Below the pieces are notes generated by a model. It did not search any database and was not told the DNA's origin. It saw only the letters and a program-made list of their open reading frames with translations. The position numbers and the translations under genes are program-made. A DNA stretch of 13,003 bases from a virus (taxonomy: Duplodnaviria > Heunggongvirae > Uroviricota > Caudoviricetes), in IMG/VR virus record IMGVR_UViG_2654587996_000003; one strand, 5' to 3'. This document shows positions 1,295-10,699 of the stretch, piece by piece; position 1 is the stretch's first letter; each line of letters opens with the position of its first letter.

Positions 1295-1317
1295 AAGAAA
1301 AAACCGCCATCAGGCGG
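1295..1317 (-). terminator. Putative intrinsic terminator (minus strand) between the 49-aa ORF and xis
   Basis: Plus-strand ccgcc-atca-ggcgg (1304-1317) forms a 5-bp GC stem; on the minus strand it is followed by TTTTTTCTT (complement of 1295-1303). The stop codon of the upstream small ORF lies in the loop. Confidence 0.4.
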
Positions 1318-1459
1318 CTTGGTGTTCTTTCAGTTCTTCAATTCGAATATTGGTTATGTCTGCATGTGCTATCTGCGCCCATATCATCCAGTGGTCATAG
1401 CAGTCATTGATGTTCTCTGCTTCGATAACTCTGTTGAATGGTTCTCCATTCCATTCCAT
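1310..1459 (-). CDS. Small hypothetical protein (49 aa) in lambda-like segment upstream of xis
   Basis: Hand-translated minus-strand ORF MEWNGEPFNRVIEAENINDCYDHWMIWAQIAHADITNIRIEELKEHQAA, open with no internal stop, ending in a hairpin terminator. AGGTGA lies immediately upstream of the ATG, too close for ideal spacing. Below the ORF-track size cutoff. Confidence 0.3.
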   Translation of the reverse strand: MEWNGEPFNRVIEAENINDCYDHWMIWAQIAHADITNIRIEELKEHQAA

Positions 1460-1490
1460 TCACCTGTGACTCGGAAGTGCATTTATCATC

Positions 1491-1675: not shown

Positions 1676-1709
1676 GCTGAAAAAAATATTTAAGGCCACA
1701 ACTGTGGCC
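1676..1709 (-). terminator. Putative intrinsic terminator downstream of the DUF1311 gene (minus strand)
   Basis: ggccac-aact-gtggcc hairpin (1694-1709) placed 11 nt after the stop at 1720; on the minus strand it is followed by UUAAAUAUUUUUUUC. Confidence 0.45.
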
Positions 1710-1719
1710 CTAAATTTAC

Positions 1720-2418
1720 TTACGGCACTGCGTTAATCAGATTACAAATACCTCTTTTGGCAGGGTCTGAATTCAACTTCTGAAAATTGGCGTTCAACAT
1801 AGCAGTGTGTAAGTGATTCTCAACCTCAAAGAATAGGTCGATTTTGCCCTCTTTGGCTGCCTGTTTCTTCCAAACATTCACTTGGTCATCAGCAATACGA
1901 CTGGCGCAAGTGAACAAGAACGAACTGCCTCTAGGAATGGATGTCGTGCTGTAATACTCACCATCTACTTCTACATATTTAGCTCGGAATGACTCTAAGG
2001 TTAGCTCATTGCCGTTCTTGACCGACTTAGCTTCTGCCTTACTTGTTTCTTCCTGCTCTTCAGAATGTTTCTGCGCCGACGTGGGTATCTCATTGGCCGC
2101 TGTTACGCTGACTGAACTCCCCAAACCGTTGAGGCCATTAATTTGGATAAGATAAGCCAGCTCCAGAGCCTTATTATCAGTGAGTTTTCCACGCATATTT
2201 ACCCACTGACGTTGAACCATTTTTAGGGTGTCTGCGTTCTCTGGGTTTTCTTTGAGGGCACTAGAATAGGCAGAGCTAAGCTGTTCGTCTAATTTTGACA
2301 GACGTTCGTTATCGCAGATTTTATGTTCGATTGCTGTCGAAGCCTTTTGGCAGTCAAAGCTGGCTGCAAATGCACCCGGCGATGCCACTAACAATGATGC
2401 CAGTAGGATATTTTTCAT
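1720..2418 (-). CDS. Secreted protein with N-terminal DUF1311 (LprI-N-terminal-like) domain; C-terminal ~110 aa unknown
   Basis: ORF-track 1720..2445. I place the start at internal ATG 2418 because GGAG sits 8 nt upstream and it yields a classic Sec signal peptide MKNILLASLLVASPGAFA/AS. The mature N-terminus FDCQKASTAIEHKICDNERLSKLDEQLSSAY...QRQWVNMRG fits the C..A.T..E..IC....L..LD..L...Y...Q..W pattern I associate with DUF1311. Confidence 0.7.
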   Translation of the reverse strand: MKNILLASLLVASPGAFAASFDCQKASTAIEHKICDNERLSKLDEQLSSAYSSALKENPENADTLKMVQRQWVNMRGKLTDNKALELAYLIQINGLNGLGSSVSVTAANEIPTSAQKHSEEQEETSKAEAKSVKNGNELTLESFRAKYVEVDGEYYSTTSIPRGSSFLFTCASRIADDQVNVWKKQAAKEGKIDLFFEVENHLHTAMLNANFQKLNSDPAKRGICNLINAVP

Positions 2419-2548
2419 ATTCACTCCATAAATACAAAAGCGCATTACTATAGCACTTAACCGATCGCTTATCTCGCCCGTTCGTCATTCTTATCTAACC
2501 AGAACATGCGGCTGCCACAGCACATGTCGAGGATCGCTGCATGTCCAG

Positions 2549-2716
2549 TCACCGGTTGCCTCCTTTGCGCAATATCGCATTCAGATATTTGTTTTGATTC
2601 ACTGATGGAAACGAGTTTCGCTTAAGTAATTCCTCTCTCGATGGCATTGGCTTTACGCGTTGGCGAATAATCATTTCTGCCGGAAGAATGCCGGGATTGT
2701 ATGCAAGTCCTCTCAT
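2549..2716 (-). CDS. Small hypothetical protein (55 aa), translationally coupled to the upstream 93-aa ORF
   Basis: Hand-translated [55 protein letters not shown]. Its ATG overlaps the TGA of the 93-aa ORF (ATGA at 2713-2716); GAGAG lies ~6 nt upstream. Below the ORF-track size cutoff. Confidence 0.35.
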
Positions 2717-2994
2717 GATTTACTCTCAACGAACTGGTCAATAGCCATGCTAAGTGACATACCTAAAGTTTCGATATGCTGCTGAATATCCTGTAGCGTC
2801 TGCGCCTGAGATAACAGGATTTCACGGTTGCATAACTCTTTAACCAGATGCTCAAACTTGCTGTAATAACCGATACGACTTAGTGTTTCTTTCCCTGCAT
2901 TCTCGCCTTCTTTGATAATTCCTCTTTCGCTAAGAATCAGATCGTGTTTGGTTCCGGTAATAACGTATTTTCCGAGGTCGATGTTTAGCTTCAT
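2713..2994 (-). CDS. Hypothetical protein (93 aa), no family recognised
   Basis: ATG-initiated ORF in the same orientation and tight spacing as flanking genes (16 nt after the 104-aa ORF stop; 4-nt overlap with the next ORF). Confidence 0.5.
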
Positions 2995-3010
2995 TGTTAA
3001 TTATTCCATG

Positions 3011-3325
3011 TTAATTTATTCGTATGCCTGCTCTTTCTTCATCGAGTTTTTTTAGCTTGTATCGCATAGCCCTTACTGAATAAATTGAGCGGCAGGTTGC
3101 AATTGCTATTTCTTCTGCGGAGAACTTACCGAAAAGTGATACTTCGGCTCTTGTCCAGCGTCTTCCACGAAGTCGGCTAACAATGTCAGCTCCAATCCTT
3201 GTTGCTTTCGCCATTACTGCTTTTTCAGTCCTTTCCAGTTTTTCAGCGATAACTTCAACTGGCATTGTTGCCGCTACTTCGCACAAGAAATCGACTTCCC
3301 ATTTCTCCCATGGAGTCTTTTTCAT
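3011..3325 (-). CDS. Hypothetical protein (104 aa) with an internal tandem duplication; possibly DNA-binding (speculative)
   Basis: ATG-initiated ORF 12 nt downstream of the Gp157-like gene. Two similar segments, WEKWEVDFLCEVAATMPVEVIAEKLERTEKAVMAKATRIG and WTRAEVSLFGKFSAEEIAIATCRSIYSVRAMRYKLKKL, share a W..(A)EV..(F/L)...(E/V)(V/E)IA.....R....AV/AM pattern. Confidence 0.5.
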   Translation of the reverse strand: MKKTPWEKWEVDFLCEVAATMPVEVIAEKLERTEKAVMAKATRIGADIVSRLRGRRWTRAEVSLFGKFSAEEIAIATCRSIYSVRAMRYKLKKLDEERAGIRIN

Positions 3326-3336
3326 AGTCGATACCG

Positions 3337-3819
3337 TTATTTGATAAGAAGTGAAGGTTTCCCAACTTTGAGTTGAGCGCCGGGGATATTTATTCCTGCT
3401 TTTAGTTGGTGTTTGATTGCCAGTTTGTCGGCTTTAATTGTCGTTTCAAACTCAACGTATTCAGGAGGAAGGGCGCTTGAGTCGATGATTTCTACAGTTT
3501 CTGACGGTTTGCGGATTGTTACTTGGTGAATACCTGCTCGAATCTTTTTCTTGCCAACCATTTCAAGCGATGACGCTATATACGCCATAATGCTGTCAAT
3601 CTTATTTTGAATTACTGCGGCTCGTTCATTCAGTGACTTTGCCTCGTCCTTGAGGCGTTCAGCATAACCAGATTCATTTTTAATAATGGCGAGAAGTTGC
3701 TCTATTTTATCGGTAAATTCTCCTTCCATTCCTTCTATTGTGTCAGCAATCATCTCTGGCTCTAAATCTGAATCCATCAATTTTGCGTATTCATTGGCTA
3801 TTTCATATAGTTTGCTCAC
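3337..3819 (-). CDS. Gp157-like (or Mu-Gam-like) accessory protein of a RecT recombination module
   Basis: ORF-track 3337..3825, where the M is a TTG codon. A better start is GTG at 3819, preceded by GGAGG at 6-nt spacing. Coiled-coil-like N-terminus plus a beta-rich C-terminus, sitting directly downstream of recT; recalled from memory as the siphovirus Gp157 family. Start overlaps the recT remnant stop. Confidence 0.6.
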   Translation of the reverse strand: MSKLYEIANEYAKLMDSDLEPEMIADTIEGMEGEFTDKIEQLLAIIKNESGYAERLKDEAKSLNERAAVIQNKIDSIMAYIASSLEMVGKKKIRAGIHQVTIRKPSETVEIIDSSALPPEYVEFETTIKADKLAIKHQLKAGINIPGAQLKVGKPSLLIK

Positions 3820-4372
3820 TGGCAACCTCCAGTTTCGCTTTGCATTCTATGTAAATGGCTTGTACGTTCTGCTGCAATTTCATTCCAGATGTCAGGCGAT
3901 ATGCTTCTGCAAAATATCGCTTCAAATCATCCATGTTTTCTGCCTGAGCCATTTCATCACAAAGAAGTTGTGCTTTTTCCATTATTTCCTGCTGGCGTTT
4001 CCGTTCATCTTCGCGGATATCTTCCTCTGATTTGTGCGGCATAACTGGTTCCTGATGCATACCTTCATCTTCGTTAAGCAGGTGAATGGCATTATCCAGT
4101 CGCTGGGCTTTAGGCCAGTATTTGCTGGCGCGTTTAACTATGGTTTTACGCGCCATCTCTTCCCAGAATGTCTTCCACGGTCCATTCTTTGCCTTGCTCG
4201 TTGCTTCCACAGCTTTAATTTCTGCCAGACTCATTTCTTCAGTCAGGTAGTCACCATCTGCTGTTTTAACCGTGCAATAACCTCCAACAATAGAGCCTCG
4301 CTCACCAAATGCGTTGTATTTGTGGGTTGGTGCTGAATCAAGGCCATTTGATTCATAGGTGTCGTTTGAGTA
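3803..4372 (-). pseudogene. recT: RecT-family single-strand annealing recombinase, 5-prime truncated (C-terminal ~189 codons only)
   Basis: The ORF-track fragment (3803..4234) contains ..NGPWKTFWEEMARKTIVKRASKYWP.., matching the RecT motif ..NGPWVTHWEEMAKKTAIRRLFKYLP... I hand-extended the frame upstream of the Met (..[35 protein letters not shown]..) and it stays RecT-like until an in-frame stop at 4373-4375. No N-terminal ~150 aa and no start codon. Confidence 0.7.
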
Positions 4373-4488
4373 TCAAAGGCGCATGTGATCAGCTACGGCG
4401 CTGGACATACGCTGGCGGTAAGCAATGGAAAGGGCTGATGACTCGCCGCGAGATTGAGCGTGAAGTCTGTTTGTGGGGGCAACAATGA
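4366..4488 (+). pseudogene. Phage lysozyme (endolysin R, P21/DLP12-type) 3-prime remnant, last ~40 codons only
   Basis: Hand translation of the frame ending at TGA 4486-4488 gives ..[38 protein letters not shown], which I recognise as the C-terminus of P21/RrrD-type lysozymes. The stop overlaps the Rz ATG (ATGA), as in lambdoid lysis cassettes. An in-frame stop at 4357-4359 and the recT-derived sequence lie immediately upstream. Confidence 0.6.
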
Positions 4489-10115: not shown

Positions 10116-10699
10116 TGGCATTCAGAATGAGTGAACAACCACGGACCATAAAAATTTATAATCTGCTGGCCGGAACTAATGAATTTATTGGTGAAGGTGA
10201 CGCATATATTCCGCCTCATACAGGTCTGCCTGCAAACAGTACCTATATTGCACCGCCAGATATTCCGGCTGGTTTCGTGGCTGTTTTCAACAGTGATGAG
10301 GCATCGTGGCATCTCGTTGAAGATCATCGGGGTAAAACGGTTTATGACGTAGCGTCAGGGGACGCGTTATTTATTTCTGAACTCGGTCCGTTACCGGAAA
10401 ATGTTACCTGGTTATCGCCGGAAGGGGAGTTTCAGAAGTGGAACGGCACGGCCTGGGTGAAAGATGCAGAAGCAGAAAAACTGTTCCGGATCCGGGAGGC
10501 GGAAGAAACAAAAAACAGCCTGATGCAGGTAGCCAGTGAGCATATTGCGCCGCTTCAGGATGCTGCAGATCTGGAAATTGCAACGGAGGAAGAAACCTCG
10601 TTGCTGGAAGCCTGGAAGAAGTATCGGGTATTGCTGAACCGTGTTGATACATCAGTAGCACCGGATATTGAGTGGCCTGCTGTCCCTGTTATGGAGTAA
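10115..10699 (+). CDS. tfa: Tail fibre assembly protein Tfa
   Basis: 194-aa [57 protein letters not shown]..., near-identical to lambda Tfa as I recall it; start overlaps the stf stop. Confidence 0.92.

Follow-up and report, generated by a model that had tools for sequence, protein, structure and literature searches.

Three small genes lie side by side on the minus strand of a 13,003-nucleotide stretch of DNA (hereafter the window), just downstream of a phage recombination module. This locus raises the question of what these genes are, whether they form one unit, and what their products might do. The original prediction, made from the letters alone, described a tightly coupled operon of unknown, overlooked proteins of 104, 93 and 55 amino acids, for which Kil-like, toxin-antitoxin or anti-RecBCD roles were proposed. 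All three ORFs are present on the minus strand downstream of the Gp157 gene (Table 1), and they are real genes, not chance ORFs. All three are annotated in RefSeq, and they share 97–100% identity with HK140 and Sf6 genes. The description of them as overlooked did not hold, since they fall into the families DUF2737, DUF5405 and PHROG 11492, which are already catalogued and common in lambdoid phages, without an assigned function. Likewise mostly wrong was the expectation that the 55-aa ORF would escape default annotation: PGAP calls it a "DUF2737 family protein", although the gene was indeed left unannotated in the record of phage Gally. The trio consists of conserved accessory genes that an HK140/mEpX1-type lambdoid phage carries in its early-left (pL) operon, downstream of RecT–Gp157. 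We refer to the 104-aa protein as p104 and to the other two by their Pfam family names.

Table 1. Positions of the features discussed in the text, numbered from the first letter of the window.
Feature	Positions	Strand	Remarks
Homologue of lambdap35 (lambda small gene)	1313-1482	-	Frameshifted
Strong terminator-like hairpin	1688-1715		3' of the LprI-family gene
LprI-family protein	1720-2445	-	Signal-peptide-like N-terminus; PHROG 4675
DNA methyltransferase stub, 27 codons (ILDMCCGSRMFW)	2469-2552	-	GTG start overlaps the DUF2737 stop (GTGA)
DUF2737 protein, 55 aa	2549-2716	-	P22 Orf56, HK97 gp38, Sf6 gp23, HK140 gp37
DUF5405 protein, 93 aa	2713-2994	-	Sf6 gp24, HK140 gp38
p104, 104 aa	3011-3325	-	Two-repeat form of PHROG 11492; equivalent of HK140 gp39
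Siphovirus Gp157 / Mu-Gam-like gene	3337-3825	-	Pfam PF05565, E = 1.5e-36; RefSeq annotation
RecT C-terminal fragment	3803-4372	-	RefSeq "recombinase RecT, incomplete, missing N-terminus"
Lysozyme C-terminal fragment	4372-4488	+	Joined to the RecT fragment
Rfam IS009 match	10458-10656	+	221.6 bits, full length

The window is a cryptic lambdoid prophage of E. coli. From 2400 to 3900 it matches 11 complete E. coli genomes at 100% identity and two more at 99.9%, the carriers being isolates from mouse, cattle, human, rat and chicken. In strain M18 the prophage region adjoins mdtABC, and the RefSeq gene order on one strand is integrase, excisionase, a frameshifted small gene, LprI-family, DUF2737, DUF5405, hypothetical protein, Gp157 and RecT. 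Beyond the RecT fragment, RefSeq places the lysozyme fragment on the opposite strand, followed by lysis, Lom and tail-fibre genes. The early promoter upstream of the trio had been described as deleted, and this was correct: RecT has lost its N-terminus and is fused to the lysozyme fragment at 4372. A single deletion running from mid-recT to mid-lysozyme has taken away pL, N, the immunity region, the replication genes and Q. Of 5426 complete E. coli genomes, exactly 13 carry this junction, and they come from varied hosts.

Because pL was lost in the RecT-to-lysozyme deletion, expression of the trio in the prophage is doubtful. A scan for promoters and terminators 5' of the trio gave nothing convincing (3 weak sites versus 6.7 expected by chance), and an Rfam search of the trio region matched no RNA family. 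The three genes are most likely silent in the prophage or weakly read through, and their intactness probably reflects a recent deletion rather than use. On the far side of the trio, the LprI-family gene has the appearance of a moron that entered between DUF2737 and xis; it was present at 2 of the 56 DUF2737 loci examined. The frameshifted small gene between xis and the LprI gene is a homologue of lambdap35, with 98% identity over 48 residues in two pieces. Elsewhere in the window, the IS009 match lies inside or beside the tail-fibre assembly gene.

The spacing within the trio was largely as predicted. The 93-aa gene follows p104 after 16 nt, and its stop codon overlaps the start of the 55-aa gene in an ATGA; the gap between the stop of Gp157, which is the last gene of the recombination module, and the start of p104 is 11 nt and not 12. 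A GAGAG lies 5' of the 55-aa start, within the 3' end of the 93-aa gene, while a Shine-Dalgarno sequence is weak or absent in the other two spacers, and this arrangement fits coupled translation along the string.

We then asked how the three genes are arranged elsewhere, using 80 viral loci per gene; the upstream neighbour of DUF2737 was readable in 75. RecT–Gp157 preceded p104 at all 80 p104 loci, and the next gene was DUF5405 or DUF2737 in every case, never directly a methyltransferase. DUF5405 was preceded by Abc2 at 69 of its 80 loci and by p104 at 10, and at 77 of the 80 it ran into DUF2737 through the ATGA overlap, which makes the predicted co-translation of the two very probable. Upstream of DUF2737 we found Abc2 at 54 of the 75 readable loci (with a 10-nt gap), DUF5405 at 14 (always with the ATGA overlap) and p104 at 7 (with a 16-nt gap), so that DUF2737 occurred without DUF5405 at 61. 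When it follows Abc2 or p104, DUF2737 has its own GAGGAATTTACC-ATG leader. Many phages that are otherwise identical lack DUF5405, and some diverged DUF5405 genes have no DUF2737 beside them. The adjacencies persist in relatives of 53–60% identity, where 4-nt overlaps are common. In one phage, Abc2, the HTH protein and DUF2737 come in consecutive order.

These neighbour counts show that the 93/55 pair is tightly coupled, very probably at the level of translation, and that p104 belongs with RecT–Gp157. The notion of an indivisible operon has to be given up: three separable modules are combined here as a mosaic, not as a fixed operon unit. This clarifies the layout of a poorly studied early-left stretch, in which DUF5405 is an optional insert and DUF2737 a near-universal closer of the recombination region in phages of Escherichia, Salmonella and Shigella.

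p104 is a small basic protein with homologues extending down to approximately 50% identity. In Pfam it gave a sub-threshold HTH_12 match alone, with no match to GcrA (PF07750) at E ≤ 1 and none to Myb_DNA-binding, and a sequence search of solved structures returned only a marginal NarL-type HTH match (E = 0.006). The AlphaFold model (pLDDT 82) consists of two three-helix bundles and shares the fold of the N-terminal DNA-binding domain of GcrA, to which its HTH is closest. The original prediction had noted an internal tandem duplication suggestive of a two-repeat helix-turn-helix. Plain pairwise self-alignment did not detect a significant duplication (score 20 versus a shuffle mean of 21), but profile–profile comparison of the two halves with hhalign did (90.8%, E = 1e-6). 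Together with the two bundles of the model, this means that the duplication holds at the profile and model level, and the two-repeat architecture was confirmed there as well. As modelled, p104 is a tandem pair of GcrA/Myb-type three-helix HTH domains.

Its family is PHROG 11492, which comprises three-repeat HTH proteins of lambdoid prophages. p104 matches the family profile with E = 7.8e-23, covering only positions 4–93 of 154, and is 50–57% identical to members of 151–153 aa. The three-repeat relatives are 151–155 aa long (the full architecture takes about 152 aa), and their third repeat aligns to repeat 2 with an hhalign probability of 98.9%. p104 is without this third repeat while its C-terminal tail still aligns to the longer proteins; judged from these alignments, it looks like a three-repeat protein minus the third repeat. 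A search of 1.84 billion representative sequences with a p104 profile yielded 2555 proteins at E ≤ 1e-3, many with 4–11 tandem units. Several of the long multi-repeat relatives match Pfam Sigma70_r4_2, Myb and GcrA. Among these proteins, some of 300–900 aa consist nearly entirely of tandem copies (4–11) of the p104-type HTH unit, W..E..L...IA..L.R(T/S)..AV.

Three-repeat relatives of p104 had a DNA-modification gene directly downstream at 69 of 79 viral loci, mostly with 4-nt overlaps, and the downstream genes belonged to at least five unrelated families. Dam (PF05869) was by far the most frequent, at 46 loci (42 of them with a 4-nt overlap), followed by MT-A70 at 11, an N6_N4 methylase at 6, a DpdA-like transglycosylase (PHROG 887) at 3, DndB at 2 and a methyltransferase-like protein at 1. 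The 69 loci span 14 protein clusters at 90% identity. The gene on the 5' side, which can be a lambda-type exonuclease, Gp157 or a 93-aa unknown, assorts independently of the downstream partner. The same HTH-modification pattern was seen in Citrobacter, Enterobacter, Scandinavium and Salmonella genomes, with a C5 methylase in one genome. As a rough control, we looked at the slot after DUF2737, where a methyltransferase was found at 2 of 56 loci. Our literature searches found no description of a link between the p104 family and DNA-modification genes.

In the window itself, p104 has no adjoining intact methyltransferase, and the stub of one lies two genes away. The stub aligns up to approximately position 2475 to an intact homologue, which is a PHROG 954 "DNA methyltransferase" (E = 6e-84). 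Since the homology ends near the point where the LprI-like cassette begins, the cassette has replaced the rest of the methyltransferase.

The gene neighbourhood of the three-repeat relatives would fit a p104 family whose members assist DNA-modifying enzymes by targeting or regulating them. Alternatively, both kinds of gene may simply favour the same slot behind the recombination genes without being tied in function, and one partner protein for five unrelated enzyme families would be unusual. It is only as a tentative proposal, and one that we would not yet bet on, that we put forward its most specific form: PHROG 11492 tandem HTH proteins as dedicated DNA-targeting or regulatory partners, acting as the constant subunit or controller for interchangeable Dam, MT-A70, N6_N4, DpdA-like and DndB-like enzymes, with p104 as a two-repeat offshoot. 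Such proteins could, for example, guide the enzymes to phage DNA undergoing replication or recombination, or, like GcrA, respond to whether that DNA is modified. The lineage of p104 may have redeployed the partner with the DUF5405–DUF2737 pair. A functional neighbourhood link would indicate that anti-restriction modification in phages draws on a shared accessory factor.

Could p104 be a plain transcription factor, a stand-alone GcrA-like regulator that tunes promoters of the phage or the host and has nothing to do with modification, with the other two genes as unrelated morons? The likeness to the GcrA DNA-binding domain would fit this, as would a match to PHROG 323 ("transcriptional regulator, D5-like"; E = 3e-19) and the existence of phage-encoded GcrA homologues that have been proposed to reprogramme the host (PMC3556154). 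We nevertheless consider it unlikely, because p104 has neither the C-terminal part of GcrA nor a Pfam GcrA match, and because a plain regulator leaves unexplained why 69 of the 79 relatives are coupled to modification genes of five families.

We give no better odds to a role in recombination, with p104 as the RecT–Gp157 counterpart of P22 Abc1/Abc2 and DUF2737 as a further recombination cofactor. Position is what speaks for it: p104 sits in the slot that Abc2 holds after Erf, its linkage to RecT–Gp157 is complete among the loci examined, and DUF2737 directly follows Abc2 in P22 as it does at most readable loci. The record of phage Gally goes further and annotates p104 (2666–2980 in the Gally locus) as "Anti-RecBCD protein 1". 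We rejected the identification of p104 with P22 Abc1, since BLASTP gave no alignment at E ≤ 100 and tblastn of p104 found no P22 match; the Gally label is therefore positional only and has no sequence basis. Against a recombination role, Abc2 and the HTH protein stand side by side in one phage, and the relatives of p104 are found behind recombination modules of four different kinds. In a survey of lambdoid Rec modules, that of HK140 is given as SAP-4 (RecT) plus MuGam only (PMC12315714), and the sources consulted on P22 credit abc1 and abc2, but not orf56, with anti-RecBCD function (P22 annotation; PMC12315714, PMC8022706).

The 55-aa protein is a clear member of DUF2737 (PF10930), with E = 2e-33 and 114.4 bits against a cutoff of 25; its residues 1–51 align to positions 1–51 of the 53-position profile. 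It also matches PHROG 1117 (E = 2e-36). The conservation in related phages that the original prediction had called for was found: the protein is 81% identical to P22 Orf56, whose gene directly follows abc2. Relative to P22 the synonymous sites are saturated at a dS of 1.87 while dN is 0.21, and the dN/dS ratio over 52 distinct alleles is approximately 0.11, which shows that the ORF is protein-coding and under strong purifying selection. DUF2737 members were found in Escherichia, Salmonella and Shigella only, and no listed member falls below 72% identity in the part that aligns. The protein is very basic (pI 11.3) and proline-rich, and a sequence search of solved structures found no relative. 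Our literature searches found no functional study of DUF2737, DUF5405, P22 orf56 or HK97 gp38.

The 93-aa protein matches Pfam DUF5405 (PF17399) over residues 9–79, with 25.8 bits against a cutoff of 21.6, as well as PHROG 154 (E = 1e-31), and it is 98% identical to Sf6 gp24. It is acidic, with a pI of 5.9. The AF2 model (pLDDT 88.7) shows four strands followed by a two-helix hairpin. A PDB search with this model gave no whole-fold match, and a sequence search of solved structures gave only coiled-coil noise. Among viral models (BFVD), Foldseek matched DUF5405 proteins to the fold at TM 0.77–0.86, and the fold recurs in uncharacterised phage proteins of approximately 85–105 aa from Salmonella, Morganella, Providencia, Bacillus, Lactobacillus and Cellulophaga phages. 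The sole functionally named match on the list was the phiKT "Replication initiation protein" (H6VU99), which is the same as the PHROG 154 label; the present analysis found no support for this label. We flag it as misleading, together with the "Anti-RecBCD protein 1" label of p104.

The least probable reading, and one that we think very doubtful, is that of the host-takeover factor, with a Kil-like division inhibitor or toxin among the trio or with the acidic 93-aa and basic 55-aa proteins as a toxin-antitoxin couple: the proteins are small, they are encoded in the operon that is home to kil, cIII and ral in lambda and P22, and the pair combines opposite charge with an ATGA overlap, but none of the three matches a toxin, antitoxin or defence family in PADLOC (E ≤ 0.1), Pfam or NCBIfam, the phages with these genes encode kil separately at another place in the operon, the exo-xis ORFs of lambda show no similarity to the trio, and the frequent occurrence of DUF2737 without DUF5405, together with the existence of diverged DUF5405 genes without DUF2737, is something that an obligate pair would not tolerate. 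No support was found for the Kil-like, toxin-antitoxin or anti-RecBCD roles offered in the original prediction.

Our overall reading is that the trio represents conserved pL-operon accessory genes stranded in a dead prophage, with p104 a predicted DNA-binding protein and likely a partner of modification enzymes, and with DUF5405 and DUF2737 a coupled pair. We place its probability at roughly 0.55. In this scheme p104 would bind DNA and act in phage DNA transactions, most likely by targeting or regulating DNA-modifying enzymes as their partner rather than by killing the host, as the neighbourhoods of its three-repeat relatives suggest. The two-repeat form would have lost the third repeat, and a DNA methyltransferase would once have stood two genes downstream in its lineage, the stub being its remnant. 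Translational coupling probably keeps the production of DUF5405 and DUF2737 in fixed proportion, and the two may act as a complex early in infection, judging only from the gene overlap and the opposite charges.

Several known systems help to place these genes. GcrA of Caulobacter combines its DNA-binding domain with a C-terminal region that binds sigma-70, and it prefers methylated DNA. p104 has two HTH domains only within its 104 aa, with no sigma-70-binding region apparent; it differs from GcrA, and from the R2R3 repeats of Myb/SANT proteins, in being a phage protein of Enterobacteriaceae without the C-terminal region of GcrA. A precedent in layout is PNB-2 of the Stx phage PA8: the gene of this small HTH protein lies immediately 5' of that for the MT-A70 enzyme M.EcoPA8orf6770P and overlaps it by 4 nt (PMC10810198). 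PNB-2 co-purifies with this enzyme and sets its substrate preference, and structure-based predictions assign it a winged HTH (PMC10810198). The gene arrangement is the same as that of the three-repeat relatives of p104, 11 of which precede an MT-A70 gene. As a homologue of p104, PNB-2 was rejected (hhalign probability 1.9%).

By map position, the equivalents of the trio in lambda are the exo-xis genes (orf60a, orf61, orf63, ea22 and ea8.5), which likewise lie between the recombination genes and xis/int and are small, conserved and non-essential. Published work reports effects of these genes on the lysis-lysogeny decision. In sequence the two sets are distinct, the best BLASTP alignments between the trio and the five lambda ORFs having E-values of 0.9–1.8 over 9–21 residues. 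Most early-left genes of P22-like phages are without a known function (PMC8022706), and papers on P22-like and lambdoid early-left operons assign none to the genes of the trio (PMC8022706, PMC12315714). The nearest relatives of the locus are phages in which the whole arrangement is kept: HK140 has gp39–gp38–gp37 with the same genes, order and strand as the window and DNA that is 97% identical, and phage vB_EcoP-683R2 has the trio in the same order as well. HK140, Sf6 and P22 are complete inducible phages with an intact pL, whereas the window is a deleted prophage.
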